A program made the translations under genes and the position numbers. Of a stretch of DNA of 48,662 nt, positions 6,289 to 48,662 are shown in pieces (position 1 is the first letter of the stretch; the number at the start of each line of letters is the position of its first letter). The DNA lies in the IMG/VR virus record IMGVR_UViG_2547132418_000015; one strand, 5' to 3'. This stretch comes from a virus. Lineage: Duplodnaviria; Heunggongvirae; Uroviricota; Caudoviricetes. The notes beneath the pieces are model-generated. The model was not told where the DNA came from and searched no databases. It saw only the letters and a list, made by a program, of their open reading frames with translations.

Positions 6289-6292
6289 GGTT

Positions 6293-8368: not shown

Positions 8369-8512
8369 AGAGATTTCCTGATTTAACGGTGATATTGAGA
8401 GAGGGTTTTAGCCTGCTGGCAGTGCCGGAAAAAGCGGGACAGCGGGAGAGACAAGGCCCATTCCGGGCCACTTTTCAGAATAACGCCAATCGCTGTCGCC
8501 GCTTTCTCAATA

Positions 8513-8947: not shown

Positions 8948-8956
8948 TGTTTCCCC

Positions 8957-9313: not shown

Positions 9314-9322
9314 AAATGCTCC

Positions 9323-26356: not shown

Positions 26357-26881
26357 TTAAATACCGGCTTCCTGTTCAAACGGAATAATGGAAAAATCTT
26401 CAATTCCCGATTTAACCGTAATTCCGGCAACACCTGCGACGGCTTTTGGTTCCAGTAAAATCGCCTCCTTGTTGATTTCCTGCTTCGTGCGAATAAAGCG
26501 TTGCAGGCCAAGACGCTCCAGCGTTTCCATCACTGCATCCATACCACGAATACTTACTGATGGTGGACGGCCCCGCCACGATACATCACCGGTGACAAGA
26601 TTCGCCGTCTTCACTTTGCCGCCGTTCGTCAGTTCGTCGCGGTTCGCTTCACACCATCCCTGAACGCCTTTTGAAAGGGTTTCAATATCGGTTTTAATCG
26701 GTGCAATCCGGGCCGCAAATTTCTCCGTAATTTCCGCGATGGCATCATTCATTTCCGTTTCCAGACGTGATGCTTCGCGCTGTAAATCCCCGATGCGTTT
26801 AATATCGGTAATCACCGCATCGCGGTTTTGTGGCACATAAGCCGCTGCGGCACTCTTGATACGTTTTGCTGGTTTAGCCAT
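26357..26881 (-). CDS. gam: Gam-like host-nuclease inhibitor
   Basis: 174-aa ORF MAKPAKRIKSAAAAYVPQNRDAVITDIKRIGDLQREASRLETEMNDAIAEI..., same length and position as Mu Gam. Confidence 0.85.
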   Translation of the reverse strand: MAKPAKRIKSAAAAYVPQNRDAVITDIKRIGDLQREASRLETEMNDAIAEITEKFAARIAPIKTDIETLSKGVQGWCEANRDELTNGGKVKTANLVTGDVSWRGRPPSVSIRGMDAVMETLERLGLQRFIRTKQEINKEAILLEPKAVAGVAGITVKSGIEDFSIIPFEQEAGI

Positions 26882-29374: not shown

Positions 29375-31363
29375 TTAAATGGCTTTTTTACGTCTGTTCT
29401 GTTCCAGAATATCCAGCGAATGATTCAGATATTCATCACGCTCAGTTTCGTATTCATCATCACGCTCCTGATTCTTCACCCGTTCCGTATTACCGGAAGG
29501 CCGGAAAATGCCGACAATTCGTGATTCTGGTGCTTCAGGTTCGGCTATCTGCGGCAGCAGCTCTGCCACTTCCAGTGCATCCATTTGTTTCTGTGCCTTA
29601 ATCGCTGCTTTCGTCGCAGATTTCAGTTGTTTCTGGCGGCGGCGATATTCACGGCCTGCCGCAGCATCATTAAACGCAACAGGTGCCAGACATTCCGCTT
29701 CACAGATAAACCGACCGTCCAGGGTGTAACAATAAACCGTGCTGTGTAGCTGCTGCGGATCAAACCTGACCACAACTTTTTTCACGCCGGCATTCATTAA
29801 TGCCATGTTGTAATAAACGTTTTTCGCGCCTTTAAGGGAGCCGCCAACTTTAAGCGTAAACTCGCCTTTGCGTGAAACGTTCACCGCCTCGGCAGGCAGT
29901 AACAGCATCCGTTTTTGTTCTTCGGTTGGCTTACGCACAATCGTTCTGGCGTATTCACGCTCGAAAACATCATCAAACGAGAGTTTGCCCCCGCACATTT
30001 CTGTTTCACGGCCTGTTCTGGCATTGAACATCGCCACACCTTCGGCAAGGTTTTTCAGAAACAGCTCTGCATCAACAGCGCGGTTGCCATAGTTATCAGG
30101 TTTTGCCTGCGGATTTGGCCCCGTATATGCGCCAGCCAGTGCCGGATGCTTATCAACGTATTCCTCAAGCCCACCAACACCGAAAGCACGTTCAACAGGT
30201 TTTGCCTGGCCCCAGCCTTTACCGGCAACAACGCTTGTCCAGTGCATTTTCGCACCCATCAGTAAAAACAATCCCTTTGGATCGTCTTCTTTCACCTTAA
30301 AGCGGTAGCGATTGGGCGCGCCTCCCGTCAGCCATTTATTCGCAGCACCACGGGTGTTATCAATGGTGATGTGAAAATCCTCCGGGATACCGTAGCGAGT
30401 CACAACATCCATGAACGAGAGGCGAATTGAATCAATGTTCTCGCTCACATCGCAGCGCCAGCCCAGAATTTTTCGGGTTTTCACATCCTGCCAGAACCAT
30501 GTTTTCGGGCGGATCACATCACCGTTAAACCAGCGTACAAAGACGTTATGCAGATAACCGTCGCCGTTGATCCACTGCATGGCGTCCAGGTGTTCCACAG
30601 TTCGCTGCTGTGCCGGTATCAGATGCATCAGTGCATGTTCACCTTCACGACAGGCAACAACCATTGCCTCGTCCAGTTGCTGAATCCGGCGAAAGGCCGT
30701 GGCACGGGAGGGAATCCTCCAGCCATGCTCGCGGGCTGCCAGTTCCAGACGCTCATAACATTTGCGGAAGGCGGGTTTTTCCGGTCGCAGATAATCTGCA
30801 ATCAGAAACTGCCAGGCATCCTCGTCAAATTCACTTTTGTGAACATTGCGACGGGATGCACCACGTCCATCAACAAGTGCAGCCGCCCAGTCAGGCTTCG
30901 CAAACTTCTGTACCTGGTAATACTTGTCCCGCAAAGTGGATGCGCTGACCTGGTAATGCCCTGCAACGGTCGCAAAAGCCGTTTTCGTTGAAATCCCCTG
31001 GTTCAGCATTTCGTCTGCAGCCTGAACCGCAGGCAACCATTTTTCAGCAAGTCTGCGCTGGGAATCGCTGGCTTTATCCCATTTGCTCCACAGCACCTCA
31101 CGATCATAATCATGGGCTTCCAGCGTGGGGCGGGCGATTTCAAAACGGCCCAGGCTTGTTTCAATTCTCCCTTGTTGCAACAGAATTTCAGCACGTAATG
31201 CGACAGGGAATGATTTGATATTGAATTCAAATGATACACCTTTAGTCCCTGCAACCTGTCTGAACTCCCAGCCTTCTCTTTGTGCCTTACGTGTAATGTT
31301 AGTGGCTTGCTTTGGTAAACCTGCCAAACCGAGCAACTCTTTTGCTGTATACCATTCTTTCAT
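29375..31363 (-). CDS. A: DDE transposase A
   Basis: 662-aa ORF, Mu A-like over most of its length with a divergent N-terminal DNA-binding region. Confidence 0.93.
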
Positions 31364-31777: not shown

Positions 31778-32302
31778 ATGATGTCTTTTGAAATCAAAGA
31801 ATGGTTTAATGCGAAAGAGCTGGAAGGGATGCCTGGTGTACCAAAGTTGGCGACTAACATTACCAGGAAAGCTGTGGCGGAAGATTGGGTAAAACGTCAG
31901 CGTCACGGTGGGAAAGGTGTCGCTTATGAGTATCACATCAACAGTCTGCCAGAAGAAACACGCAGGGCCATTAAAGGAGCCTCACTTTCTGATAAACCAG
32001 TGCATACATCAATCGCCCATACAGTTGATGAGAGGCTAATTTATGCAATGAGCTTCTTAACACCAGATGAGCAGGCCGCAGCTGTGGAGATCATTCGTGT
32101 GGCAGGGATTAAAGGACTTATGCCTACAATTGTCAGTAAAGATAAGGCATTAGAGGCATTAGGGATTACTGTGGAGCAACAGAAAACCCTGCAAACTCTT
32201 CAGGCATTACCACCGGAAAAAGTGAGAGAGATTTTGTCTCAGTATGAAGGCAAAGAACATAATTTCCCTGTAAGAGAAAACGATGTAAAGAAAGCTGTAT
32301 AA
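31778..32302 (+). CDS. c: Repressor c (Mu/D108 family)
   Basis: 174-aa ORF with AGGA ribosome-binding site; C-terminus ...KVREILSQYEG...KKAV as in Mu-type repressors; divergent from ner. Confidence 0.85.
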   Translation: MMSFEIKEWFNAKELEGMPGVPKLATNITRKAVAEDWVKRQRHGGKGVAYEYHINSLPEETRRAIKGASLSDKPVHTSIAHTVDERLIYAMSFLTPDEQAAAVEIIRVAGIKGLMPTIVSKDKALEALGITVEQQKTLQTLQALPPEKVREILSQYEGKEHNFPVRENDVKKAV

Positions 32303-32641: not shown

Positions 32642-32654
32642 GTGCTGATTTATG

Positions 32655-32957
32655 TCAGACGGGATTTTGCTTATCAATTATTGAGAACAGAAATTTTCCT
32701 GAATCATCAATACTATACTTAGCAAGTAAAGGTGTTTTCTCATTTATCTGCTTGAGTGCAGGATCAAGGAAAGATCGTTTCAACTCTGCCAAGTTCTTCT
32801 GCTGGGATTCCGGTAAGACGAAACGGTCATTTAACCAAGCATGAGTAGTAACCCATAAGCCTGAAGATTTGAATTGAGCAAGACTTTCATAAAGGCGGAT
32901 CGTCCGGGGATTTCGAAGACTGCCACAATCGCGGAGCGAGTAGGTGGTGAACTGGTT
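32655..32957 (-). pseudogene. Remnant of a second Rep_3-family initiator gene (C-terminal about 99 codons)
   Basis: Minus-strand translation QFTTYSLRDCGSLRNPRTIRLYESLAQFKSSGLWVTTHAWL...INEKTPLL...DKQNPV aligns with the C-terminus of the rep gene at 40612-41334; cut by IS1 at 32957/32958. Confidence 0.75.
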
Positions 32958-32972
32958 GGTAATGACTCCAAC

Positions 32973-33476
32973 TTACTGATAGTGTTTTATGTTCAGATAA
33001 TGCCCGATGACTTTGTCATGCAGCGCCACCGATTTTGAGAACGACAGTGACTTCCTGCCCAGCCTTGCCAGATGCTGCCTCAGATTCTGGTTATGCCGCT
33101 CAATTCGCTGCGTATATCGCTTGCTGATAACGTGCAGTTCTCCCTTCAGGCGGGATTCATAAAGCGGCCAGCCATCCGTCATCCATACCACGACCTCAAA
33201 GGCCGACAGCAGGCCCGGAAGACGCTCCAGCGTGGCCAGAGTACGCTCACCAAAGACGCGTGCCACCACCGTCCTGCACATCCTGCCATAGGCGTAAAAT
33301 AACCAGCGCTGACGTGATTTAGCCCCGACGTAGCCCCACTGTTCGTCCATTTCCGCGCAGACAATGACGTCACTGCCCGGTTGTATGCGTGAGGTTACCG
33401 ACTGCGGTCTGAGTTTTTTAAGTGACGTAAAATCGTGTTGAGGCCAACGCCCATAATGCGGGCGGTTGCCCGGCAT
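32973..33476 (-). CDS. insB: IS1 InsB (transposase frame, made as InsAB' by frameshifting)
   Basis: 167-aa ORF ...[22 protein letters not shown]... Confidence 0.88.
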
Positions 33477-33670
33477 CCAACGCCATTCATGGCCATATCA
33501 ATGATTTTCTGGTGCGTACCGGGCTGAGAGGCGGTGTAAGTGAACTGTAGCTGCCATGTTTTACGGCAGTGAGAGCAGAGATAGCGCTGATGTCCGGCAG
33601 TACTTTTACCGTTACGCACCACGCCTTCAGTAGCTGAGCAGGAGGGACAACTGATGGAGATGGAAGCCAC
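33395..33670 (-). CDS. insA: IS1 InsA
   Basis: 91-aa [46 protein letters not shown]... Confidence 0.9.
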
Positions 33671-33729
33671 TGGAGCACCTCAAAGACACCATCGTACACT
33701 AAATCAGTAAGTTGGCACCATTATCCGGC

Positions 33730-35650
33730 AGGCGATCTGGATTATCGTCACGCTGTTAAATATGTCGCGGTAGGGATACCCGTTACCGGATACCCCCCGC
33801 ACAGATCCCGGCGTGCGCGATTTACGCACCGGGCTCCTGCCTCGGGTGTCTGGCGGTGAACCGCTCCACAGGCCATGGATGAAGAACCCGAACCCTTGGT
33901 AGCCATGCGGCTGCCAGTTTGTTTGCTTTCGTCCAGGTCGTATCATCCTTCTGGCTCCTGCGCCTGAGCGCCCGGCGCCAGAGGTTTGTTACGTGTGTCC
34001 TGAACTTCTGCATGGTGGGGAAGTTGCCCGGTACCGAGTGATAGTTCAGGTATCCCTGAACCACTCTCCTGAGCCATTTTCCCTGTTCGGGGATTGAGTA
34101 ATGCCAGCGCCTTCGCAGACCGTCTTTGATGGCTTTCAGAGTTGCCGTCATCCGATCCCGGCGGGTCTTTCGTATCAGCATGAACCTGCCGTTGCGATCT
34201 TTCCCGCTGATGTGCGTGAACCCGAGGAAGTTGAACGTTTCTGGTTTGCCTTTTCCCCTGATGGCACGGTTTTCGGCAGCGAAGCGGCCGAACTCCATCA
34301 GACGGGTTTTCTCCGGGTGAACCGTGAGTCCGAACTCCCTCAGTCTGCGCTGCATGGCTATACGGAAGCGCCGGGCATCGTATCGTTTGTCGAACCCGAT
34401 GACGATGTCATCGGCGTATCTGACCATTACCACATTGCCTGTGGCATAGCGACGTCGCCACTGATGCGCCCACAGATCGAAGACGTAGTGGAGGTATATG
34501 TTTGCCAGCAGCGGTGAGATGACCGCACCCTGTGGGGTGCCTTCCTCCGTTGCTCGCCATTGACCCTCCTCCAACGTCCCGGCTGTGAGCCACTTACGTA
34601 TGAGCCTGATTACGCTCCGGTCGCCGATCCGATGCTCTGTGAACCTGATCAGCCATTCGTGGCTCACCCTGTCGAAGAACTGACTGATGTCGGCATCCAG
34701 TACCCAGTTTACGTTAGTGCGTACCAGCCCTGTGGCCAGTGCGTCCAGTGCATCGTGCTGGCTTCGCCCGGGTCTGAACCCGTATGAGAACCCCATAAAG
34801 TCGTTTTCATAGACTGCGTTCAGGATTTTCACCAGCGCATACTGGACGATCTTGTCCTCCAGCGAGGCGATGCCGAGCGGGCGTTGTTTTCCATCCGCTT
34901 TTGGGATGTAGTGACGCCTGCCGGGCTGCGCCCTGTAGCTGCCCTAATGTAGCCTCCGGTGCAGATCTGTTATGTTGTTCTTCATGTTTCCGGCGTAGTC
35001 CATCCACCTGATGCCATCCACTCCGGCGGCCGCTTTCCTGCTCAGGGAGAGGAATGCGGCTTCCAGTGCTTCGACTGTCAGCAGGTGGAACAATGCTGTA
35101 AACCGTTCTTTCTTCCGCTGCTTCGCAGCTTCCCGCACGCGTGACAGCCTCTGTGACATGCTTTCCCGGCTCTGTGTCCGGCGCATGTGTGGCTGTTCCG
35201 CGTTCCCCTTGGCCCCGCTCCTTCGCTCCACTGACTCCGCTCCTTTCGGGTTGTTCGCCTGCTTCGCCGCTACTATGAGCGAGTCCGACTTCTCCTCTCC
35301 GTACATCACCGGCTATGACTCCTCGTCTTCCCGGTGCGGGCCGTCTCCGACACTGGCAGATGGTCAGAGGGGAGATCTCCCGGTTCCCGCGTAGAGATCG
35401 TATTGACATGCCAGGGTCTCAGACCCCGCCGGGTCCATGTGGCACTCGCAGTATCGCACCCTATGATGTTGCCTTCCGTTAACAGTACAACGTCGGCACC
35501 CGGTAATTTAATATACATTTCGTGGCTCAATGGCTGGCCTGTCAACACCCCTGTCAACGCTTCGCCCCATACCTCGCGGTATGCAACGCATGACTCGGGG
35601 ACCTTGTGGATTGCTGGTCCTTCAATGGTCGGGGACTTTCACCCCTTGAT
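33730..35650 (-). mobile_element. Group II intron 1, boundaries approximate, 5' end possibly truncated
   Basis: Reverse transcriptase ORF; domain V-like GAGCCCGGTGCGTAAATCGCGCACGCCGGGATCT on the minus strand at about 33803-33836. Confidence 0.6.
33822..35309 (-). pseudogene. Group II intron reverse transcriptase/maturase interrupted by an in-frame TAG
   Basis: ORFs 34944..35309 and 33822..34832 are in the same frame, separated only by TAG at 34944-34946; motifs AAGVDG, FRPGRSQHDA, YADD. Confidence 0.8.
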
Positions 35651-35674
35651 CTCTACCGGTCTCCCGGTGAGCAC

Positions 35675-35690
35675 TGTATGTATAACCAGT
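35675..35690 (+). promoter_or_regulatory. LexA (SOS) box upstream of the umuD-like gene
   Basis: CTGTATGTATAACCAG fits CTG-N10-CAG, 26 bp upstream of the ATG. Confidence 0.75.
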
Positions 35691-35715
35691 AAAATTAGAG
35701 TGTCAGGAGGAAAGA

Positions 35716-36146
35716 TGAAACTACAACTTTTCAGCACCGGGAAAGAACTCCCGCCACAGGCCCATCCATTGTTTGCCGATCTGGCCAGCTGCGGTTTTCC
35801 CAGCCCTGCTGCTGACTATGTCGAGTCCGATCTGGATCTCCATGATTACTGCATACGGCATCCGAGCGCGACGTACTACCTGCGTGCCAGCGGAGACAGC
35901 ATGGCCGACGGCAGTCTGTACAATGGCGATCTGCTGGTTGTGGACAGTGCTGAAAAGCCGCGGCACGGCGATATCGTTGTCGCCAGCATGCAGGGGGAGT
36001 TTACGGTGAAACGGCTTCTGCTGACGCCGCGACTGACGCTGCAGCCCATGAATGCCTCCTGGTCGCCGATTTATCCTGATCCCGACGAGCTGGATATCTT
36101 TGGCGTCGTCACGCATATCATCCACCGCCCGAGGGAGATGTACTGA
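35716..36146 (+). CDS. UmuD-like translesion polymerase accessory protein
   Basis: 143-aa [37 protein letters not shown]... with Cys-Gly cleavage site; track ORF 35334..36146 is a spurious upstream extension. Confidence 0.88.
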
Positions 36147-37417
36147 TGTTTGCCCTGGCCGATGTGAACAGCTTCTATGCCAGCTGTGAACGTGTTTTCC
36201 GCCCGGATTTGAAAGGAAAGCCGATAGTCGTCCTGAGCAACAACGACGGGAATGTAATCGCTCGCAGTGCCGAGGCGAAGCCCTGGATCAAAATGGAAAC
36301 TCCGTGGTTTCAGATAAAAAACGAAAGATACCCGGAAAAAATATATGCGTTTTCAAGTAACTATGAACTTTATGCCTCGATGTTGGCGCGCGTGATGAAC
36401 AGCCTGGAGGAACTGGCCCCCAGAGTGGAACAGTATTCAATTGATGAGATGTTCCTCGATTTGACCGGCGTGGAGCACTGTATGGAGCTTGAGGACTTCG
36501 GCCGGCAGCTGCGTCAGCACGTGTATGACTGTACCCACCTGACCATTGGCGTGGGCGCCGGACCAACGAAGACCCTCGCAAAATCAGCCCAGTGGGCCTC
36601 AAAAGAGTGGAAACAGTTTCGTGGCGTACTTGCTCTGACCAGGGGAAATCCGCAGAGAACGCGGAAACTGCTTTCACTGCAGCCGGTTGAAGAAATCTGG
36701 GGGGTGGGTAACCGTATTGCACGCAAGCTGAATGTACTGGGCATTAAGACCGCGCTCGATCTCGCCCTGACGAACCCGGCCTTCATCCGCAAAAATTTTT
36801 CTGTGGTCCTTGAGCGAACGGTACGGGAACTGAACGGGGAAAGCTGCCTTTCGCTTGAGGAAGCCCCTCCGACGAAACAGCAAATTGTCTGCAGCCGCAG
36901 TTTTGGCGTGAAGATCACGGAGTACGAGTCACTCCGTCAGGCTATCTGTCAGCACGCAGAGCGGGCCTCTGAAAAACTGCGTAAAGAGCACCAGTATTGC
37001 CGGCATATTTCCGTTTTCATCAAAACGTCTCCGTTCGCCATTAAAGAGCCTTACTACGGCAACGTGGCTACGGAAAAACTTCTTACACCCACTCAGGACA
37101 CCAGGGACATCATTGCAGCCGCTACAACGGCTCTGGAGCGTATCTGGAGGGATGGGCACCGGTATGCCAAAGCCGGAGTTATGCTGAATGACTTCACCGG
37201 CTCCGGCGTTTCGCAGCTGCAGCTGTTCGACGAACGCCCGCCACGCCCTTACAGTGCTGAGCTGATGAAGGTTCTGGACGGGATCAACAACTCAGGGCTG
37301 GGTAAAGTATGGTTTGCGGGGCGGGGTATTGCCCCGGAATGGCAGATGAAACGGGAGATGCTTTCTCCTGCTTATACGACACGATGGTCAGATATTCCTT
37401 CAGCGAAACTGGCGTAA
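36146..37417 (+). CDS. UmuC-like error-prone DNA polymerase V catalytic subunit
   Basis: 423-aa [22 protein letters not shown]...SNNDG..., Y-family polymerase; start overlaps the umuD-like stop. Confidence 0.9.
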
Positions 37418-37419
37418 AA

Positions 37420-37498
37420 CTTTGGCGATTTCACCTTGAAATTCTCAGCCTAAACTGCCTAATTACAATAAGTTAGATGTGAAATCGCCATGGCGAAA
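37420..37498. other. P1-type partition site parS
   Basis: ATTTCAC/GTGAAAT heptamers and TCGCCA/TGGCGA hexamers flanking an AT-rich segment, immediately downstream of parB. Confidence 0.7.
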
Positions 37499-38476
37499 TT
37501 ATTGACTCAAATTTCTGTCAAGGACCTCGTTGATAGCCTTGTCCAGTTCATCCTGAATCACTTTTGACATACGGCTAAACTCATAAGTCAGCGTACGCCC
37601 TTTCACACGCTTACGCGCGAACTTGTCCTTTTCTTCAAAAGACCAGAGTGGGGAAACCACTGACTTTTCCTTGGGAGATGGATCTATCAATGCCTGAGAT
37701 GCCTGAGAAATCAGCTTCAGTATACTGGCTTTCTGTTCGTCTTCTGGTCGCTCGCCTTCACTCAAAATTGCATCGAGCTGAGCTGATACAGACTGAATGA
37801 GTTCTTCAGGCGTTAATCCCTTTTCACTGAGTTTTTCATTAACTTCTAAAAGAAGTTTATAGTCACTAAACGATAGCTCCGACTGAACCGGGAACAGAGA
37901 AATCAAGTCTTGCGGTACGGCCGCCGCCTGCAGCGCCCTGGTAACTTTAGCTTGAGATAACCCCTCCAGTTCAGCAATTTCCTTTTGATTAAATCCGGAC
38001 TCTTTAAGAGCGATCAATCTCAGGCCAATCTCCCGAAGATTATGTTCTTTAGCTGTCTGGATATCTTTAGCCAGTTGGCGAGCTTCATCAGCTGATAAAT
38101 GCTCTTCGGTAACCATTACATCAAGGCCTGTACGGACAAAAATTGCTGAGGCTCGCCGTCTTGAACCATCCAGTATCTCAATCCTTTCACTTTGCTTAAT
38201 ACCAATACAGGGAAAGAACTGCTGAAACTTAATCGTCTGGATAATGGATTTCAGGGATTCCCTGGTCAGTGCAAGTTGATCTCTTCCGTTGTTTTCCTGG
38301 TTTACGAAGGTCTTACTTTCAACTTCAGATGCAGGCACCCGAACAAACCTGAACGTTACCTTCCTGCCGGTTTTTAAGGTAAATACCTGGCTTCTACCGG
38401 TGTCCGTCATTTCCGCAATTGACGCCTGGGTATTTAACTGTCTGCCGATGGTTTTTCTTTTCTCATTCGACATCAC
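37499..38476 (-). CDS. parB: Partition protein ParB (P1 type)
   Basis: 325-aa ORF with ...IEILDGSRRRASAI... and GLSQAKVTRALQAA motifs. Confidence 0.9.
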   Translation of the reverse strand: MMSNEKRKTIGRQLNTQASIAEMTDTGRSQVFTLKTGRKVTFRFVRVPASEVESKTFVNQENNGRDQLALTRESLKSIIQTIKFQQFFPCIGIKQSERIEILDGSRRRASAIFVRTGLDVMVTEEHLSADEARQLAKDIQTAKEHNLREIGLRLIALKESGFNQKEIAELEGLSQAKVTRALQAAAVPQDLISLFPVQSELSFSDYKLLLEVNEKLSEKGLTPEELIQSVSAQLDAILSEGERPEDEQKASILKLISQASQALIDPSPKEKSVVSPLWSFEEKDKFARKRVKGRTLTYEFSRMSKVIQDELDKAINEVLDRNLSQ

Positions 38477-39678
38477 ATACCTCCGTTAGTACGAATGAAC
38501 TCGATGCGATCAAAGACTGCCTTCGCAAAGTCTTCCGCTGCTGATTTTGCGCTTTTTAGTGCCTCTGTACTTCCATCATAGGTTGCTGGATTTGCTGAAA
38601 TAACTGTGTCAAAAGTCTCCCCACAACGTTCGAAACCATCCAGTCTTGGCAGAACCATGTCTAGCATATCGGCACCGAAAACCTCTTTGGCCTGACTATG
38701 GCAAATTTTGTGATCAGACTTGTTCAGGATCTTGGACATGAAGCCGACATTACCGATGAGATTGCAGGTGTGCCCATCCATTTCGATGGAATCTATGAGG
38801 GCAGGGAGGCTGGCCACAAACTTCAGGGAAGAATGAAAATCAACCGTCGCCGGTGGAAGAGGGGTCAACATCAGGTCTGCCGCCCCAATGCAGTTTTTCA
38901 GGAACGCATCAAGGTGAGGACCACTATCAAGGAAAATAAAGTCGTAGTCATGCTGGAGCTTGTCGATAATGTTCTCTTTAAGCACCGCATGAATATTTTT
39001 CCCTGGCAGATGTTCTTCACACAATCCCTTCCAGCCTTCAGCAAGGAATGCATCGTCAATGGAAGCGGGGATTACATCAACACCAGGGATAATAGACGGT
39101 ACTATAAAATCGGAAAGTAATTCTTCACGAGACACGTTCTGGAGCATGGCCTGAGCAGCCGTATTTTCAACCAAGCCCACTGAATTCTCATGGCTCAGGA
39201 ACATTGTCAGAGATGCCTGCGGATCGAAATCGATGGCCAGAATACGCAGGTCTTCGAACAGAAGCTGAGGATGAGCTCGAAAAGCATGTGATAATGAAGC
39301 GGTAGAAACTGTCTTGGAACCACCACCTTTAAGATTACATACAAAAATCGTAAAGGCTTTATCGAAGCGATCCCTGTACTTCGGTACTTTACGATGGTTA
39401 TACAGATCGATGACATTCTGAATCGTCATCGCGTATTTCATCGTATTACCAGAAGGTTTCTTTTTAAAAATGTAGCCACCGGCTTCCATTTCGGACACAG
39501 CATACTCAACACTGCCTTTACTGAGCTTAGGCAGCTTATACAGAGCGGCTTTGCTGTATTCCTGATAGAACTCGGTAAGCTTCAATTCCTCTTTTTGCTG
39601 TCGGATACTTTCGCTCAAAGATGTCAGAAGCTTACCTGCACGTGTAGCGACTTTCCGTAACTGCTCAATATTGTCCAT
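38473..39678 (-). CDS. parA: Partition ATPase ParA (type Ia, P1 type)
   Basis: 401-aa ORF with deviant Walker A CNLKGGGSKT and an N-terminal DNA-binding extension. Confidence 0.9.
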   Translation of the reverse strand: MDNIEQLRKVATRAGKLLTSLSESIRQQKEELKLTEFYQEYSKAALYKLPKLSKGSVEYAVSEMEAGGYIFKKKPSGNTMKYAMTIQNVIDLYNHRKVPKYRDRFDKAFTIFVCNLKGGGSKTVSTASLSHAFRAHPQLLFEDLRILAIDFDPQASLTMFLSHENSVGLVENTAAQAMLQNVSREELLSDFIVPSIIPGVDVIPASIDDAFLAEGWKGLCEEHLPGKNIHAVLKENIIDKLQHDYDFIFLDSGPHLDAFLKNCIGAADLMLTPLPPATVDFHSSLKFVASLPALIDSIEMDGHTCNLIGNVGFMSKILNKSDHKICHSQAKEVFGADMLDMVLPRLDGFERCGETFDTVISANPATYDGSTEALKSAKSAAEDFAKAVFDRIEFIRTNGGM

Positions 39679-39684
39679 TTATCA

Positions 39685-39730
39685 CCTCATGACGTTTTTT
39701 GTCATTTTGAACAAAAAGTGTCATGTTGCA
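39685..39730. promoter_or_regulatory. par promoter/operator with inverted repeats
   Basis: ATGACGTTTTTTGTCAT palindrome (39689-39705) immediately upstream of the parA ribosome-binding site. Confidence 0.55.
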
Positions 39731-40070
39731 AGAAAAAAAATCATATTGTTTTGATTTCGCTCTCAACAGAAGGGGGATGAAGCTCGACGGGCGTGCTACT
39801 AAATCACACTGCAGCAACACGCAGACGCACTTTTGACCATCAACAGCAACTCATACAAAAGGGCTTTGAGAAAGGTATTCAACTTGCAAGACAGGAGAGT
39901 CATTCAGAAGGATTCTGATTTTAGTTACGACCAGTGCAATGCTGAGCCTTATGTATCAGCGCTCGCCGCAGCCATGTAACCGAGCGTAGCGAGCGAACTG
40001 GCGAGGAAGCGAAGAGGAACCGTTCCGGCAGATAGCTCTTACGCTCAGCACAAGAAGAGTTTTCCATCCT

Positions 40071-40565
40071 CTGTGGGAAACAGGTCAACTTTAATGGACG
40101 CTCCGGACTATGGGAAACAGGTCAACTTCGCGGACGGCCCGGACTATGGGAAACAGGTCAACTTCACGGGCGGCCGGGAGTGTGGGGAACAGGTCAACTT
40201 CGCGGACGGCCCGGACTATGGGAAACAGGTCAACTTCACGGGCGGCCGGGAGTGTGGGGAACAGGTCAACTTCGCGGACGGCCCGGATTATGGGAAACAG
40301 GTCAACTTCGCGGGCGGCCGGGACTGTGGGAAACAGGTCAACTTTGCAGACGGCCCGGACTGTGGGAAACAGGTCAACTTCGCGGGCGGCCGGGAGTGTG
40401 GGGAACAGGTCAACTTCGCGGACGGCCCGGACTAAGGGAAACAGGTCAGCTTCTCGGACGGCCCGGACTATGGGAAACAGGTCAACTTCTCGGACGGTCG
40501 GGAGTGTGGGAAACAGGTCAAGTTAGGCAAGCACTATGGGAAACACAGCAAGTTCAGTATCCCCC
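40071..40565. repeat. Array of 13 direct 36-bp iterons plus one degenerate unit, downstream of rep
   Basis: Unit TGGGAAACAGGTCAACTTCGCGGACGGCCCGGACTA repeated at 36-37-bp period. Confidence 0.9.
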
Positions 40566-40611
40566 CATATGTCAGCAACAAACTAAGGGGGGAGGAAATA
40601 AAAATTACAGA

Positions 40612-41334
40612 CTATTGTTTTTTATCAAGAAAATTAAACAGCAAGCGACCATCTTCTTCAGTGGTATATGTTACCTTTAATGGCGTCTTCTCATTAATTT
40701 TCTTCAGAGCAGGTTCCAGGAAGGTACGCTTCATTTCAGCAATATTGTTTTTCTGCGAGGCAGGGAGCATAAACCTTTCACATAACCAGTCATGTGTGGT
40801 GATCCAGACACCAGTGCTCCGGAACTGACACAGGCTTTCATAAAGCCGGATGACACGAACACTATTAAGCTGGCCACAGTCATAGAGAGAATAGGTAGTG
40901 AACTGGGAGGTTAAGCCGACCAGGAATGGCATGACCTTGTAGTTAAATTCAATCTGCCAGGAACCCCGGCCTCGCTTCATTCCTGCTTCAGCCAGCCACG
41001 GACGTTTAACTTCTTCAAACTCACCTTCTTTTGGATAAAAGGTAACCGTTGATTCGCCCAGAGCATTTACCCCAGCCTTCACATCACGACTGGCGACAGA
41101 CGTAGCGACATTGAAGTATTTGACGTAATCGGAAACGCTGATTTTGAAGAGCGGCAATACGTCAGAGTCATCTTCCTGGCTGTCATTAAAATAGGCCTGC
41201 ATGAGGCATAACCACAGCACACGTTTTGCCTGAAGAGGCAGGTAATATGCAGCTTCGGTCAATTCGTTAGATTGCTTTATACTGGCGCGTTTTTTAAACG
41301 TTTTAGTAGCTGGCAAGAGTGCTTGAGTATCCAT
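40612..41334 (-). CDS. rep: Rep_3/RepE-family replication initiator
   Basis: ORF 40612..41493; start placed at ATG 41334 (MDTQALLPATKTFKKRASIKQSNELTEAAYYL...) because upstream codons overlap origin iterons; RLYESLCQFR motif. Confidence 0.82.
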   Translation of the reverse strand: MDTQALLPATKTFKKRASIKQSNELTEAAYYLPLQAKRVLWLCLMQAYFNDSQEDDSDVLPLFKISVSDYVKYFNVATSVASRDVKAGVNALGESTVTFYPKEGEFEEVKRPWLAEAGMKRGRGSWQIEFNYKVMPFLVGLTSQFTTYSLYDCGQLNSVRVIRLYESLCQFRSTGVWITTHDWLCERFMLPASQKNNIAEMKRTFLEPALKKINEKTPLKVTYTTEEDGRLLFNFLDKKQ

Positions 41335-41399
41335 TTCAATGCCTATGGGTAAATTTTTACCCACCCATAATGACAGTGAAAACAGAAATTGCAAGCTAT

Positions 41400-41690
41400 C
41401 GCGATACTTATCCACCGGAAAAATCTGCACTTTATCCACAAGTGGATAATTGAGAACTGAACTTGACCTCTTTCCCATAGCTTGTTGATGCATATCCCAT
41501 AGCTTGTTGACACAAAACCCACTGATACGTGATTAATTTCCCATATTATGTTTACCAGTTGCCCATACAGGCCCCCTCTCAGGCCGCACTGTACGCGGCT
41601 TTCAGGCTCCCTAAAAGATGTAAAATAAAGAAAAAGAATAAAAAAGTACTTTATAAAAATATGCCCGTGGATAAGTGGATAACCCCGAGG
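41400..41690. other. Vegetative replication origin: DnaA boxes, four spaced iteron cores, AT-rich segment
   Basis: TTATCCACAAGTGGATAA (41433-41450), GTGGATAAGTGGATAA (41666-41681), CCCATA cores at about 41475, 41497, 41541, 41563, AT-rich 41600-41660. Confidence 0.7.
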
Positions 41691-42025
41691 GGAGGTGATT
41701 TTTCAGGCATTGAGCGTAAGCAGAATTTATAAGTTTTGTTCCCTGGTGCTTCCTCGCTCACTCGGGGCTTCGCCCTGTCGCTCGACTGCGGCGAGCACTG
41801 CTGGCTCGATCATATCCGTGGCCGGAAGATACTACTCCTCCCCCGAGTCGCTCTCCAGAGCCGGCTACAGCGAGACAACCCGCACGAAGATTTCTATCGT
41901 CCCTGCAGACATATTCGAATCGTTTTTATTAACCCTGGCTTCCGTCGTGACAGAACACTACGTCCTGTAAAAGGGGGACTAAGGCCCCTGAATCACACAC
42001 CTGAATAATGCGGAGTTTTACGATA

Positions 42026-42112
42026 ATGTCATTGCTGGAAACTTTCCTGACCGCTTCTCAGGGGGCAACAATCCTGTTCCTTGCCATGCTGATTTACTGG
42101 CAAAAGCGATAA
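42026..42112 (+). CDS. Possible 28-aa hydrophobic peptide
   Basis: MSLLETFLTASQGATILFLAMLIYWQKR with GGAG upstream, followed by palindrome GCTGGCCTTTGGCCAGC; not in the ORF track. Confidence 0.25.
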   Translation: MSLLETFLTASQGATILFLAMLIYWQKR

Positions 42113-42240
42113 ATCCAAGCGGGCTGGCCTTTGGCCAGCTTCGCTGTATAAGGGGAAAAATGCGGCATATCCAGACATTTCACTAGGCAATTTGAATTCA
42201 GATATCTATGCTTGGGATCCGGTCAACAGGAGGTAACAAG

Positions 42241-42498
42241 ATGAAACTTGAAACTATACAGATAGATAATACCGTAAGGAGTGGTCTTAATTCTTTCACT
42301 GACGGGGTGATTATTCGTGATACAAAGGTATTGATCACGCTCAATCTCCCGGATGGACAGAAAACCACTATTGAGGGGGAATGGCGGCATATGTCGGACG
42401 CCAACAGGTTGTCAGAACGTATTACGATGCTTCAGCATGCGATCTATGAGCAGTATGAAGAATACAGAGCAGATATTCCCGTCAGCTGGTCCAGATAA
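42241..42498 (+). CDS. Hypothetical 85-aa protein
   Basis: ORF 42208..42498; ATG at 42241 (MKLETIQIDNTVRSG...) with AGGAGG ribosome-binding site. Confidence 0.55.
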   Translation: MKLETIQIDNTVRSGLNSFTDGVIIRDTKVLITLNLPDGQKTTIEGEWRHMSDANRLSERITMLQHAIYEQYEEYRADIPVSWSR

Positions 42499-42555
42499 CG
42501 TCTGACAGACCTCCCCGGCGAGCAGGACGTTCGCCAGCATCATTCTCCTAAGTAC

Positions 42556-43332
42556 TTAAATATTCCCTTTCAGCATGGCTACCGCATCCGCTTCGGGCAT
42601 CTGAAACTGAACTCGATGCCGCGCAGCAACATCAAGTGCGAACACCTTCGTATAGACTTCCGTCGAGCTAATCGATTTGTGGCCCATCAGGCTCTGCAAA
42701 ACCTTCAGTGGTATGCCGGCATACAGCATATGCATCGCGTAGGAGTGGCGGAACGTATGCGGGGTGACCGGCACCGAGAATGTCCCCCCGTCGACGGCGG
42801 CCGCTTCAACCGCTTCGCCAATCCAGGTCCGTACTGTCCGGTCGGTGATGTCCCAGATGCGGGCTTTCTCTGTTCTGCCGGTACGCTTGTTGCGTCTTTC
42901 CAGCGGAATTTTCAGGGTGGCCACCATCATCTGCAGCTGGCTGACGTAGTGGTGATCGGAAAGCGGAACCAGACGATGAGCCTGGCTACCGGCGGGAGCT
43001 CGGCCGGCTGTCCTGGCCGCTTTTTCGGTGCGCTGCTTAAGCGTGGCCAGCTGCACGAACGGATACGGTGGCACCAGCGAAAAATCCCCCCGGGTCAGCG
43101 CCAGCGCCTCGTTGATACGTGCGCCGGTGTTCCAGAGGGTTGCCAGCAGCATCTTGCGGTGCAAATCGGGCACATAATGGAGCAGGGCGCTGACTTCCGG
43201 TGCCAGCAGGTATTTCGGTAGTTCATCTTGAACGAGCGCCATCTGGCGCAGGGCCAGCGCGGCGGGATAGTCAATGGCCACCGGCATTTGCGCCGGCTGC
43301 TGCGGGTGAGAATATGATAAGAGGCCGCTCAT
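42556..43332 (-). CDS. Tyrosine site-specific recombinase, likely plasmid multimer resolvase
   Basis: 258-aa ORF with ...HTFRHSYAMHMLYAGIPLKVLQSLMGHKSISSTEVYTKV... (R-H-R-Y active-site pattern). Confidence 0.85.
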   Translation of the reverse strand: MSGLLSYSHPQQPAQMPVAIDYPAALALRQMALVQDELPKYLLAPEVSALLHYVPDLHRKMLLATLWNTGARINEALALTRGDFSLVPPYPFVQLATLKQRTEKAARTAGRAPAGSQAHRLVPLSDHHYVSQLQMMVATLKIPLERRNKRTGRTEKARIWDITDRTVRTWIGEAVEAAAVDGGTFSVPVTPHTFRHSYAMHMLYAGIPLKVLQSLMGHKSISSTEVYTKVFALDVAARHRVQFQMPEADAVAMLKGNI

Positions 43333-44072
43333 TGGTTTGACATTCCATCAGGTATCACTAATTGATTCCACTCCCTGTTGCGGGTAGCTTCAGCAGCGCG
43401 CAGGGCTCTTTCGCGCCTCCAGACTTTACGAAACACGGAAACTGCAGACCATTCATCATGACCTGTAAGACGTGTTTCGGGCATCCCGGTTGCCTTGCGC
43501 AGACGGACGGCAAGAATGACAGCGTTGATGCCCAAGCGCGTGAACTGATACTGCCGTTCCCTGAAATAGTCCTTATGCCAAGGAGGGTCGGAGTATTCGG
43601 CGGCATATGCAATTGCCCTGTGGGCCTCATCCTGGAGCACCGGCAGTTCACGGATGCGATACATAAGACGTGGCTCTAAAGTCCGCCAGTCACCGGAGAC
43701 ATCGATCAGATTCAGTTCAGGGTAATTCGTGACAGCTTTTCTCTCAGGCTGGGGGGCATCATCATCCTGGCCGTCATCCGTCACAACCCGGAAACAACCC
43801 TCAGCATACCGTTCAAGCATGAATACCAACTCGGTGGCAATGTAATGCAGTTCCTTTTTCATTTTATCTTCTGACGCCTGTCTCTCACGCTTAAGCGTGA
43901 AATAATGTGTCAGCCAGATGCCAGTGAGTGTTATACCCCCAGTAAGCAGGCCAGTGATAAGCCCGGTTGCCACGTTTCCCCAGATCCCCGCCCCTTGATT
44001 AATCAGCTGTACGGAAACCGGATGGGATGTCGCAGCAACTATACTCTCAGTTGCGGCCTGTATATCAGTCAT
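43329..44072 (-). CDS. Hypothetical membrane-anchored protein, stop overlaps the recombinase start
   Basis: 247-aa ORF with N-terminal hydrophobic segment GNVATGLITGLLTGGITLTGIWLTHYF; 4-nt overlap with 42556..43332. Confidence 0.6.
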   Translation of the reverse strand: MTDIQAATESIVAATSHPVSVQLINQGAGIWGNVATGLITGLLTGGITLTGIWLTHYFTLKRERQASEDKMKKELHYIATELVFMLERYAEGCFRVVTDDGQDDDAPQPERKAVTNYPELNLIDVSGDWRTLEPRLMYRIRELPVLQDEAHRAIAYAAEYSDPPWHKDYFRERQYQFTRLGINAVILAVRLRKATGMPETRLTGHDEWSAVSVFRKVWRRERALRAAEATRNREWNQLVIPDGMSNQ

Positions 44073-44122
44073 TGATCATTTACCCCTTTATATTCCTGAG
44101 AAATCCCGCCCTCTGTCCGTAG

Positions 44123-44473
44123 TCAGCGGCCGGCAGCCAGCTCTTCAGCCAGTTTCACAAACCTTTTGTGCTCAGTCTGCAGGTAATGGCTGTAAATCCG
44201 GGCATCACGTTCTGTCAGTCCGGATGGATTGCCGGTGAAGTAACGTTGCAGCACCGCAATACAGTGATTGTAGGTATCGAGATCATATTCCCAGTTTCCC
44301 AGCTCACCGGCCGCATCCAGTTCCTGGCGAAACTGCTCGTATTTACGGAGCAGAATGCCAAGACCTAATTCTGTTGCAGCATAAAGATTATTTTCTCCTG
44401 GCGCGGAAATCGCATTACGGATTTTTTCAAAAGCATAACTGAAATCATTTCTCTCATTGAATGCAGTAAACAT
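44123..44473 (-). CDS. Hypothetical 116-aa protein, first gene of the recombinase operon
   Basis: ORF 50 bp upstream of the membrane-protein gene, same strand. Confidence 0.55.
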   Translation of the reverse strand: MFTAFNERNDFSYAFEKIRNAISAPGENNLYAATELGLGILLRKYEQFRQELDAAGELGNWEYDLDTYNHCIAVLQRYFTGNPSGLTERDARIYSHYLQTEHKRFVKLAEELAAGR

Positions 44474-44549
44474 GTCCTTTCCTCAGTTGAATAGTTAGCC
44501 GTGCAATTTTACCACACCTCAATCATCGTCAGATGAGTGCCACTCTGTC

Positions 44550-44585
44550 GTGACAGTGACTTTCACTAGAGTGATTTTCACATAC
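44550..44585. promoter_or_regulatory. Two short palindromes upstream of the 116-aa gene
   Basis: AGTGA-CTT-TCACT (44555-44567) and GTGA-TTT-TCAC (44571-44581). Confidence 0.4.
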
Positions 44586-44879
44586 TAAAATAATAAGCAG
44601 CCATATAACAACGTAATTAAATTACCTGACGGCCGCTCTGGCCGGATCCGACTTTTATGTTATTCCACAGTTTCCGGAAGTGTACCACGCACACGGAATA
44701 ACCACAGCGCCCTTTCAGGGTGGTGAGCGGCCGGTCACGGGGCAGGGGAGGGACACAACATATATGGTCACTGACAGCTGGAAACACCGCTACATCTTGT
44801 GTTTCCGGGCCGCTGCGCGCCGGCGGGGCTGAATCAGATCCGGAACTGCCTTTTTTCGGATCTGAGCGGGAAAAGTGAG

Positions 44880-45046
44880 AAACCAACATAGGTGTAACAT
44901 ATCCATATGCCGGGCATCTGCATAGGCAAAGCATACGCATATACCTACCATCTGCATATGTAACACCTATACAAGCCGGGCTTGCAGGCATATACTTCAC
45001 CTATGCGGGAATACTCCCTGGCACACTCAGCATATGAGGAAAAACC
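44880..45046. promoter_or_regulatory. Repeat-rich region upstream of vapB
   Basis: Inverted repeat ATAGGTGTAACATAT / ATATGTAACACCTAT; palindromes ATGCCGGGCAT and CAAGCCGGGCTTG; AGGAAAAACC ribosome-binding site before ATG 45047. Confidence 0.4.
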
Positions 45047-45277
45047 ATGCGCACAGTTTCGATATTTAAAAACGGCAATAACCGCGCCATCCGTCTGCCC
45101 CGGGACCTGGATTTTGACGGCGTCAGCGAGCTGGAGATCGTCCGGGAAGGGGACAGCATCATTCTGCGTCCCGTCCGGCCGACCTGGGGCTCGTTCGCGC
45201 AGCTGGACAGGGCCGATCCGGACTTTATGGCGGAGCGTGAGGATGTGGTCAGCGATGAAGGACGTTTTGAGCCATGA
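45047..45277 (+). CDS. vapB: VapB-type antitoxin (AbrB/SpoVT fold)
   Basis: 76-aa MRTVSIFKNGNNRAIRLPRDLDFDGVSELEIVREGDSIILRPV...; stop overlaps the vapC start. Confidence 0.85.
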   Translation: MRTVSIFKNGNNRAIRLPRDLDFDGVSELEIVREGDSIILRPVRPTWGSFAQLDRADPDFMAEREDVVSDEGRFEP

Positions 45278-45690
45278 AGAAAACCTGGATGCTCGATACT
45301 AACATCTGCTCGTTCATCATGCGCGAGCAGCCGGCAGCGGTGCTGAAGCGCCTGGAGCAGGCGGTGCTGCGCGGTGATCGCATCGTGGTCTCGGCCGTGA
45401 CATATGCCGAGATGCGCTTCGGCGCCACCGGCCCGAAGGCCTCGCCGCGCCATATTCAGCTGGTCGACGCGTTCTGCGCGCGCCTCGATGCCGTCCTGCC
45501 CTGGGACCGCGCCGCGGTGGACGCCACGACGGACATCCGGGTGGCGCTGCGCCTAGCCGGGACGCCGATCGGCCCGAATGACACGGCCATTGCCGGGCAC
45601 GCCATCGCGGCGGGCGCCATCCTGGTGACGAACAATGTGAGAGAGTTTGCGCGGGTCCCGGGCCTGGTGCTGGAAGACTGGGTGAAATAA
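45274..45690 (+). CDS. vapC: VapC-type PIN-domain toxin
   Basis: 138-aa MKKTWMLDTNICSFIMREQ... with conserved acidic residues. Confidence 0.85.
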   Translation: MKKTWMLDTNICSFIMREQPAAVLKRLEQAVLRGDRIVVSAVTYAEMRFGATGPKASPRHIQLVDAFCARLDAVLPWDRAAVDATTDIRVALRLAGTPIGPNDTAIAGHAIAAGAILVTNNVREFARVPGLVLEDWVK

Positions 45691-45834
45691 TCCCGTAATA
45701 ATTTCCGTGACGGAGACGACAGACATGAATGGGCTTTGTTGAATAAATCGAACTTTTGCTGAGTTGAAGGATCAGATCACGCATCCTCCCGACTGGATTT
45801 GCCCCTATATTTCCAGACACCTGTTATCACTTAA

Positions 45835-45914
45835 TGGAGTGACCCCGAGCCCGTAGACAAATCTGCCCTATAGTTGGAGTGACCCCGAGCCCGTAGACAA
45901 ATCTGCCCTATAGT
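45835..45914 (+). repeat. Perfect 40-bp tandem duplication between the IS end and orfA
   Basis: TGGAGTGACCCCGAGCCCGTAGACAAATCTGCCCTATAGT at 45835-45874 and again at 45875-45914. Confidence 0.95.
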
Positions 45915-45933
45915 TTGAGCATAGGAGGAGTCT

Positions 45934-46218
45934 ATGGGCACATCACGTTTTACCCCTGAATTTAAGGAAGAGGCCGTCCGCCAGATCACCGAGCGGGGCT
46001 ATTCTATTGCTGAAGTATCTGAACGGCTCGGCGTGTCGGCGCACAGCCTATATAAATGGCTCCGGGCTGTTAAGCCTGACAACAGTGGACAGCAGGCACA
46101 GGATTTACTGGATGCCAGAACAGAAATTCTCAGGCTGAAAGCACAGCTTAAACGCACTGAGGAAGAGCGGGATATTCTGAAAAAGGCAGCGCGGTACTTT
46201 GCAAGGGAGCCCGACTGA
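45934..46218 (+). CDS. IS3-family transposase OrfA
   Basis: 94-aa ORF with helix-turn-helix and leucine-zipper-like C-terminus ending ...DILKKAARYFAREPD; AGGAGG ribosome-binding site. Confidence 0.85.
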   Translation: MGTSRFTPEFKEEAVRQITERGYSIAEVSERLGVSAHSLYKWLRAVKPDNSGQQAQDLLDARTEILRLKAQLKRTEEERDILKKAARYFAREPD

Positions 46219-46265
46219 AGTATCGCTTTATCAACGATCACCGTGAAATCTGGTCGATCGTTACA

Positions 46266-46620
46266 ATGTGTCGGGTCCTTAAGGTTGCCCGTGCCGGATT
46301 TTATGTCTGGCTCCATAACCCTGTATCTGCCGGAGAAAAGGATAACCAGCGACTGCTGGAACTCATCCGCGACTCCTATACGCTGAGTGGTGGAGTTTAC
46401 GGTTATCGCAGGGTTCATGGCGATCTTCGCGAAATTGGCGAAGTGTGCAGCAGAAACCGGGTTGCCAAAATCATGAGGAAAAACAGGATTCAGGCTATAC
46501 ATGGTTATAAAGTGCCACGCGGGAGCCGGGGACGACCGTCACTGATAGCGCCTAATCACGTGCGGCGTGAATTTACTGTAGTGAAGCCCAATCAGGTGTG
46601 GGTCACCGACATCACCTACA
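46266..46620 (+). pseudogene. IS3-family transposase OrfB, N-terminal part, interrupted by a group II intron
   Basis: Ends ...NQVWVTDITY, then the reading frame enters intron sequence beginning GTGTG at 46621. Confidence 0.8.
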
Positions 46621-48308
46621 GTGTGCCCGGAGTTCAGGGCGGGCATGGATGCTTAAATGAACCGCGAGTCTGTCTGGAATATTGAACCGGTAACTCACGA
46701 TGAGAAACCCAACAATCCCACCGGGTGTGACGGTGGAGAACCTGAGCGGCAGTGACCTGCGGCATGCCCGCAGGGTGATGTAACCCGCTGACAACGGGGA
46801 TTGAGGCGAGATCACTAAGCCGAGATGATCCTCAAGGTTAAGTACTGAAAGGCTGAAGAACATGAACCCGTTAATCCGCCTCTGTGGGTTGAAAACGTCA
46901 CCACGGCCTACGTGATCTGACAGGCCGTGCAGGAGGAACTGGCAGTGATACGTAAGCACTGCCGGTCGAAGGTGTTTTGACATGTATGCGAAACACCGGG
47001 GCAGCAGCGTCTATCACGCTTGCGTTGCTGACTTCTGCCAACTTGCGGCAAGCAAGGATAAAGAGTGCGACGGGCAGCCTCCTCAGTATGCCTGAGTCCA
47101 GGCAGGTAAACCGGGGAAGGTCAGCGACGGATGTTAAGGGGGCATGGCTCCGATGACGCGCTGGCTGGCGGAGCTTCCGTAGTAGTCCGCGATGGGGAAA
47201 GCCCATTACATGGCGAAGGGAAGCAGTTTGAATGTGTTTGCGACGTGAATTAACTGACCTAACGAGGTGAAGACCTTTGATAATCAGCGAAATGCAACGC
47301 AAGCTTGCCACATGGGCAGCCACCGATCCGTCCCTACGGATTCAACGGCTGCTGCGTCTGATAACACAACCAGAATGGCTGGCTGAAGCGGCGCGGATCA
47401 CGCTTTCATCAAAGGGGGCGCATACCCCCGGCGTTGATGGCGTGAACAAAACAATGCTACAGGCCAGACTGGCTGTTGAGCTGCAAATCCTCAGGGATGA
47501 ATTACTCTCAGGCCACTACCAGCCCTTGCCCGCCAGACGGGTTTACATCCCTAAAAGCAACGGCAAACTGCGACCACTGGGTATCCCCGCGTTGCGGGAT
47601 CGTATTGTTCAGCGGGCCATGCTGATGGCGATGGAGCCGATATGGGAGAGTGATTTTCATACGCTCTCATATGGCTTCCGGCCTGAGCGCAGTGTCCACC
47701 ACGCGATCCGCACGGTGAAATTACAGCTCACAGACTGCGGTGAAACCCGGGGACGCTGGGTGATTGAAGGCGACCTGTCCAGTTACTTCGACACCGTACA
47801 TCATCGACTGCTGATGAAGGCTGTACGCCGCAGGATCAGTGACGCACGTTTCATGACTCTGCTGTGGAAAACCATCAAGGCGGGACATATCGATGTCGGT
47901 CTCTTTCGGGCGGCCAGTGAAGGTGTGCCACAGGGCGGTGTTATATCGCCGCTATTATCGAACATCATGCTGAATGAGTTCGATCAATACCTGCATGAGC
48001 GCTACCTGAGCGGGAAAGCCAGAAAAGATCGGTGGTACTGGAATAACAGTATCCAACGGGGCCGAAGTACGGCGGTCAGAGAAAACTGGCAGTGGAAACC
48101 CGCGGTGGCGTACTGCCGCTATGCCGATGATTTTGTCCCCATCGTCAAAGGCACCAAAGCACAGGCGGAAGCCATCAGGGAGGAGTGTCGGGGTGTGCTC
48201 GAAGGCAGTCTGAAACTCAGGCTGAACATGGATAAGACTAAAATCACCCATGTTAATGACGGCTTTATCTTTCTGGGGCACAGGATCATTCGCAAACGCA
48301 GTCGTTAT
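46621..48308 (+). mobile_element. Group II intron 2 (5' part), inserted in IS3-family orfB and truncated by IS26
   Basis: Starts GTGTGCCCGG; about 656 nt of structured 5' region, then a reverse transcriptase ORF that runs into the IS26 terminal repeat at 48309. Confidence 0.8.
47277..48308 (+). pseudogene. Group II intron reverse transcriptase/maturase, C-terminally truncated by IS26
   Basis: ORF 47277..48335 with HTPGVDGVNK, YIPKSNGKLRPLG, YCRYADDFV motifs; last residues are read from the IS26 terminal repeat. Confidence 0.85.
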
Positions 48309-48662
48309 GGCACTGTTGCAAATAGTCGGTGGTGATAAACTTATCATCCCCTTTTGCTGATGGAGCTGCACATGAACCCATTCAAAGGCCGGCATTTTCA
48401 GCGTGACATCATTCTGTGGGCCGTACGCTGGTACTGCAAATACGGCATCAGTTACCGTGAGCTGCAGGAGATGCTGGCTGAACGCGGAGTGAATGTCGAT
48501 CACTCCACGATTTACCGCTGGGTTCAGCGTTATGCGCCTGAAATGGAAAAACGGCTGCGCTGGTACTGGCGTAACCCTTCCGATCTTTGCCCGTGGCACA
48601 TGGATGAAACCTACGTGAAGGTCAATGGCCGCTGGGCGTATCTGTACCGGGCCGTCGACAGC
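48309..48662 (+). mobile_element. IS26, 5' part beginning with terminal repeat GGCACTGTTGCAAA
   Basis: Terminal repeat at 48309-48322, transposase start at 48372; 48432-48662 is identical to 1-231. Confidence 0.93.
48372..48662 (+). CDS. tnpA: IS26 transposase, N-terminal part
   Basis: MNPFKGRHFQRDIILWAVRWYCKYGISYRELQEMLAERGVNVDHSTIYRWVQRYAPEMEKRLRWYWRNPSDLCPWHMDETYVKVNGRWAYLYRAVDS. Confidence 0.93.
   Translation, partial: MNPFKGRHFQRDIILWAVRWYCKYGISYRELQEMLAERGVNVDHSTIYRWVQRYAPEMEKRLRWYWRNPSDLCPWHMDETYVKVNGRWAYLYRAVDS

Follow-up and report, generated by a model that had tools for sequence, protein, structure and literature searches.

The window, by which the whole stretch of 48,662 bp analysed here is meant, is the complete contig APZN01000103.1 (48,662 bp; identified by exact matches of two window proteins and identical to the window over the 36 kb compared) of GCA_000358145.2, a many-contig short-read draft assembly. 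It contains a Mu/D108-like prophage that has lost its right end, followed by an IncR plasmid backbone, and both of its ends lie within pieces of IS26. The features are listed below with their strand where one was assigned; the IS26 parts were located by BLAST of the merged element against the window.

1-226, + strand: terminal repeat, start copy (IS26 positions 129-354)
1-692, + strand: IS26 3' part (IS26 positions 129-820)
2-640: tnp26 codons 23-234, within the IS26 3' part
679-692: right inverted repeat of IS26, perfect
586-1044, - strand: S'-IS26 fusion open reading frame
693-32641, - strand: Mu/D108-like prophage, right end deleted
693-1044: S, truncated tail-fibre gene
1044-1586: gp48
1577-2659: gp47
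6293-8368: tape measure
26357-26881: Gam
28398-29336: B
29375-31363: A
31778-32302, + strand: c repressor
32642-48308, + strand: IncR plasmid backbone, 15.7 kb, including a rep remnant and a partial ISEc15
32973-33670: IS1X3
33822-35309: degenerate group II reverse transcriptase (RT) gene with an internal stop, adjoining IS1X3
35715-37417: umuDC
37499-39678: parB/parA
40074-40521: 36-bp iterons, 12.4 copies
40612-41478, - strand: repB, Rep3-type
42556-43332, - strand: resD
45047-45690: vapBC
47292-48308: RT gene cut by IS26
48309-48662, + strand: IS26 5' part (IS26 positions 1-354)
48309-48322: left inverted repeat of IS26, GGCACTGTTGCAAA, with its reverse complement at 679-692
from 48372: tnp26 start, first 97 codons, within the IS26 5' part
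48437-48662, + strand: terminal repeat, end copy (IS26 positions 129-354)

IS26 at the contig ends

The two IS26 pieces lie where the original prediction had placed them, at 48309-48662 and 1-692, with the left inverted repeat starting at 48309 and the right one ending at 692, and its estimate of a single element of about 815-820 bp agrees with the merged pieces, which add up to exactly 820 bp (354 + 692 - 226). Each piece on its own is partial, and in the merged element the 14-bp inverted repeats GGCACTGTTGCAAA are perfect and an open reading frame of 234 aa scores 275.6 bits against the IS6 family transposase NF033587 (cut-off 125). The merged element shows 0 differences to IS26 in three unrelated records (CP040165.1, AQDV01000034.1 and one Logan contig), and the PLSDB plasmid matches to it carry IS26 annotation. 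Both pieces are on the + strand and are thus directly oriented. There is no 8-bp target duplication at the edges of IS26, as the comparison of GTCGTTAT (48301-48308) with CTTTTTTG (693-700) reveals, and this IS26 is therefore not a simple insertion. A missing target duplication is expected after cointegrate, deletion or conservative reactions and hence is no argument against the identity of the element.

The ends of the window had been described as an exact repeat of 231 bp, with 48432-48662 equal to 1-231. That there is an exact terminal direct repeat holds true, its length and start do not: the longest prefix equal to a suffix is 226 bp (1-226 versus 48437-48662, 100% identical), whereas in the register 48432-48662 versus 1-231 matches are found at 50 of the 231 bases, the start at 48432 being five bases too early. 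The end-to-end alignment that had been proposed as a check gave the same answer, identical ends over 226 and not 231 bp. An exact match of this length cannot be due to chance. It is the sole long two-copy repeat within the window, and a search of the window for an internal, third copy of IS26 found none. If closed at this overlap, the molecule would be a circle of 48,436 bp, so that the predicted size of about 48.4 kb is right as arithmetic. As the window is a whole contig, the repeat joins the two ends of one contig in a many-contig draft.

How common are contig ends of this kind? The partial Tnp26 products of the left and the right terminus occur in 222 and 157 indexed blocks of the collection, the former being two to four times commoner than the products of three control start positions (56, 68 and 109 blocks). 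A special hot spot at the termini was considered and rejected, the left-end excess showing ends that are commonplace and not positions that are unique. Draft contigs starting or stopping inside IS26 are abundant in public drafts. Starts at IS26 position 128/129 and ends at position 355 recur in many unrelated NCBI draft contigs, and assembler overlap trimming at k=127 is possibly the cause of this preference. Two other origins of the break points were also rejected. A k-mer-limited break in a de Bruijn assembly should extend equally far into IS26 on both sides, by no more than k-1 bases, and the observed lengths are 692 and 354. A fork at an IS26 sequence variant would have to coincide with the break points, and neither C42T, seen in the related contig described below, nor GG to AA at 613-614, seen in E. 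coli D6 plasmid A, lies at 128 or 355.

Prophage, plasmid backbone and their relatives

The prophage is 96.9% identical to Mu coordinates 8545-31802 and 98.1% identical to D108 coordinates 1-9594. Its left end (TGTATTGATTCACTTGAAGTACG...) is complete down to the last base, which lies at 32641, and in addition to the genes listed above ner, terminase, portal and other head and tail genes are present. At the other side IS26 interrupts S after about 117 codons, at a Mu coordinate of about 31,809 and ahead of the boundary of the G segment (the Mu map has the start of S at 31458 and that of the G segment at 31966). The window therefore lacks the remainder of S, U, S'/U', the G segment, gin, com and mom, as well as the right end with attR. 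Having lost its right end the prophage would be unable to transpose, as expected from established Mu biology. The S'-IS26 fusion begins with the first approximately 117 codons of S and continues through the right end of IS26, and this exact fusion product was found nowhere else on record. The morphogenesis region also holds a perfect 33-bp tandem duplication of 2.0 copies (10869-10934).

Look-ups with gp48 and the c repressor retrieved many Mu-like prophages, all of them chromosomal, and in PLSDB the sole other plasmid record with this Mu-like DNA is CP088505.1, at 93% identity. This record of 52,198 bp was deposited as a circular non-mobilizable E. coli plasmid and contains a complete Mu-like genome together with tyrosine integrase, RecT and nuclease genes and IS1. 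Its annotation lists no obvious plasmid replication genes, and the record may represent a phage region that was excised or wrongly assigned.

The backbone is that of an IncR plasmid, since repB, the iterons and parAB, resD, vapBC and umuCD were all found, and its identity to IncR-typed plasmids is 99.2-99.7%. Two different group II intron RT genes lie in it, at 33822-35309 and 47292-48308. In the second, IS26 cuts the gene at its 3' end and the reading frame carries on through 9 codons of the element. At 45835-45914, between vapC and the remnant of ISEc15, lies a perfect 40-bp tandem duplication, which is also present in the two relatives described below, AQEY01000006.1 and E. coli D6 plasmid A, and is therefore an inherited feature of the backbone. 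Compared with the same two relatives the iteron array of the window is 72 bp longer, by two units in a perfect double-unit duplication, with 11 core motifs versus 9. This excess reflects either a real change in copy number or an assembly difference.

The three junctions of the window (truncated RT gene to IS26, RT'|IS26; IS26 to truncated prophage, IS26|Mu'; Mu left end to plasmid, Mu-left|plasmid) are found in one IMG/VR record only, IMGVR_UViG_2534681703_000016 (49,238 bp), which is NCBI contig AQEY01000006.1 from the separate assembly GCA_000355295.1. The first 74 bp of this twin contig belong to an IS110-family transposase gene (IS110'), after which come a complete IS26 and Mu'. At its other end RT' leads into about 800 bp of IS26 in the same orientation as the first copy. 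The 74 bp, which sit within an intact IS110-family (IS4321/IS5075-like) gene on E. coli F-type (IncF) plasmids, were searched for in the window and are absent from it; the outer flank of the Mu-side IS26 in the twin is TCCAGCTC. As both IS110' and RT' flank IS26 in the twin, that genome contains at least two IS26 copies, or left flanks. This accounts for the end of the contig within IS26, and the closure of RT' to Mu' through IS26 is consequently just one possible pairing. Different unique sequence beyond each IS26 copy, which according to the original prediction would speak for two copies in a larger replicon, is thus essentially what is seen, in an assembled contig instead of long reads.

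At IS26 position 42 the two copies of the twin differ, with T in the copy beside IS110' and C in the copy beside RT' and in the canonical element. The T is located at position 116 of AQEY01000006.1, 115 bases from the contig start, and the final approximately 90 bases of the same contig hold two single-base deletions. The T may be genuine and specific to this copy, or else an error at the end of the contig. The two variants fit recombination between two pre-existing copies and fit an assembler crossover equally well.

Apart from the iteron array, in which the twin has two units (72 bp) fewer, window and twin differ by 8 substitutions in 23,128 compared bases (at 6112, 6790, 7011, 7016, 20771, 26571, 30716 and 42785). 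At all eight positions the base of the window equals that of a neighbouring C or G run (six A to C, one C to G, one T to G), six of the eight are missense (three in the tape measure, Gam V104G, MuA S216R and ResD V183G), and the other relatives compared side with the twin. An explanation as private errors was rejected, as a few unrelated assemblies have ResD V183G and Gam V104G as well. The differences may be recurrent context-specific sequencing errors or real variants.

Of the three junctions, RT'|IS26 recurs without a single base difference in plasmid A of E. coli D6 (NZ_CP010149.1), an IncF/IncR plasmid of 199 kb, and no other PLSDB record has this junction in one piece. In D6, in AQDV01000034.1 and in one metagenome scaffold, as well as in 15 similar places, the IS26 at this junction is followed by mef(B)'-sul3, a resistance region, and in one Logan contig by a Tn3-family gene. 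The RT'|IS26 junction is old and shared. The IS26|Mu' and Mu-left|plasmid junctions were found in none of 5,426 complete E. coli genomes and not in PLSDB, the GTDB representative genomes or the JGI metagenomes, and searches of the literature for an IncR/Mu plasmid and for APZN00000000 returned nothing useful.

Closed circle, chimera or break at two IS26 copies

How did the two identical ends arise? The original prediction had allowed for either a circular molecule or a contig broken at two IS26 copies. The latter is the reading we consider probable, though with considerable room for doubt: a contig broken at two separate, directly oriented copies is favoured over a circle of 48,436 bp by the draft nature of the contig, the flank in the twin, the continuation into sul3 and the commonness of IS26 contig ends. 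The identical termini mark a contig boundary of the ordinary kind that repeats induce, a type of feature already known, and are no evidence of a closed circle. Each contig end would enter IS26, at the start with positions 129-820 and at the end with positions 1-354, and the two incursions would happen to overlap by 226 bp. The underlying DNA would then most likely be a module of 47.6 kb, composed of the IS26-truncated Mu-like prophage and the IncR replicon and bracketed by two direct copies of IS26 in a larger replicon, an arrangement of the IS26 cointegrate or pseudo-compound type. In IS26 cointegrates directly oriented copies are found at both boundaries (PMC4196232).

Concerning the history of the module, the clean left-end junction and the continuity of the D6 backbone across the site demonstrate that the Mu-like phage transposed into the IncR backbone. 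An IS26-mediated deletion or recombination probably took out the right end of Mu together with adjacent plasmid DNA, and the position of the module between two direct IS26 copies would most simply reflect an IS26 cointegrate with an F-type plasmid bearing an IS110-family element. A copy-in cointegrate would as a whole be flanked by an 8-bp target duplication and would predict TCCAGCTC TTTAATCTG... directly after the right-hand IS26, where the assembled sequence ends, and copy-in into the IS110-family gene would predict ...TTTGCAACAGTGCC and then TCCAGCTCTTTAATCTG on other APZN01 or AQEY01 contigs. The two IS26 copies are probably physically separate in this isolate, and the structure probably originated by IS26 cointegrate formation or deletion. 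Two caveats apply to the use of the twin. It is a different assembly from the window, and its path from IS110' to Mu' spans an 820-bp repeat and may be an arbitrary choice of the assembler, so that it proves at least two IS26 left flanks in that genome but not which of them pairs with Mu'.

A genuine closed circle, an IncR plasmid of 48,436 bp with a single IS26, a right-end-deleted Mu-like prophage and a 226-bp overlap at the ends of the contig, is possible but doubtful. The overlap of the ends is exact, the two pieces fit together perfectly into an intact 820-bp IS26, there is no internal IS26, and the unrelated flanks without a duplication are what an IS26-mediated adjacent deletion leaves. 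Furthermore, the incursions of 354 and 692 bp are deeper than in a simple k-mer-limited break, and the segment contains repB, iterons, parAB, resD and vapBC, a gene content that would make autonomous replication plausible. Recombination between direct IS26 copies, by RecA or Tnp26, releases a circle with one IS26 (PMC4196232; PMC4676283). With direct IS26 copies and a complete IncR replicon a free circle of 48,436 bp is thus biologically plausible and may coexist with an integrated form; it could be the product of a resolved cointegrate. On the circular reading another IS26 elsewhere in the genome would supply the IS110' flank of the twin. Yet the twin puts a different flank beyond the Mu-side IS26, IS26 is multi-copy in the genome of the twin, and RT'|IS26 normally continues into the sul3 region. 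Moreover, RT'-IS26-Mu' was not found in one piece in PLSDB, the complete E. coli genomes, the GTDB representatives or the JGI metagenomes, and contig termini of this kind are common in drafts. A chimera, in which the assembler misjoined a chromosomal Mu-like prophage to an IncR fragment and neither the module nor the identical ends would represent a single molecule, is highly improbable. Such prophages are indeed common in E. coli chromosomes, and a sister assembly (AQCM01000023.1) holds one in chromosomal context, but the plasmid is joined precisely to the outermost base of the left end of Mu, as in transposition, with no repeat shared there, the Mu-left|plasmid junction is present in two separate assemblies, and the backbone of D6 is continuous across the insertion point.

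What would follow from each reading? It is rather unlikely, though conceivable, that the window represents a free IncR plasmid or giant IS26 translocatable unit of 48.4 kb that carries a locked Mu-like prophage. Were this true, the loss of the right end and the tail-fibre genes to IS26 would have locked the prophage in place. Through its single IS26 the unit would alternate between the free circular form and a cointegrate with an F-type plasmid, and the locus would be an example from nature of the capture and immobilisation of a transposable phage on a resistance-plasmid backbone. For the contig broken at two IS26 copies, the reading that we prefer, the consequence is a practical one. The near-identical sister contig is catalogued in IMG/VR as a viral genome, and if the window were called circular, part of a larger plasmid would wrongly pass for a complete phage or plasmid of 48 kb; a terminal overlap within a mobile element should not be used for calling a contig complete. 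A Mu-like prophage that entered an IncR backbone and was afterwards disabled through IS26 is seldom seen in public collections of plasmids, and the mechanisms involved are known ones.

Comparison with known systems

An exact terminal overlap is widely taken as a sign of a complete circular genome. In the window the first and last 226 bp are identical as well, but the overlap lies wholly inside the multi-copy IS26 and not in single-copy sequence, and the twin continues differently; for these reasons the overlap is not diagnostic of circularity.

Compared with Mu and D108 (Muvirus), the prophage is 96.9-98.1% identical over Mu coordinates 1 to about 31,809, with the left end, c, ner, A, B and the head and tail genes intact. 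It differs from them in being without most of S, U, the G segment, gin, com, mom and the right end, and in being located in a plasmid backbone and not in a chromosome. E. coli D6 plasmid A has a backbone that is collinear with that of the window from the rep remnant to the RT gene, at 98.8-99.7% identity. In contrast to the window, D6 plasmid A has no Mu insertion, has two iteron units fewer, and continues from the RT gene into its own IS26, a G184N variant (GG to AA at 613-614), and then into mef(B)'-sul3.

The published IS26 is 820 bp long, with 14-bp inverted repeats and a Tnp26 of 234 aa (PMC4196232), and the merged element likewise has 820 bp, 14-bp inverted repeats and a 234-aa Tnp26. 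In known IS26 cointegrates and pseudo-compound structures direct copies bracket a segment, and there is no 8-bp duplication at the individual copy (PMC4196232). The proposed structure would share this arrangement and would differ in that the bracketed segment, at 47.6 kb, is unusually large and consists of a replicon and a phage instead of a resistance gene.
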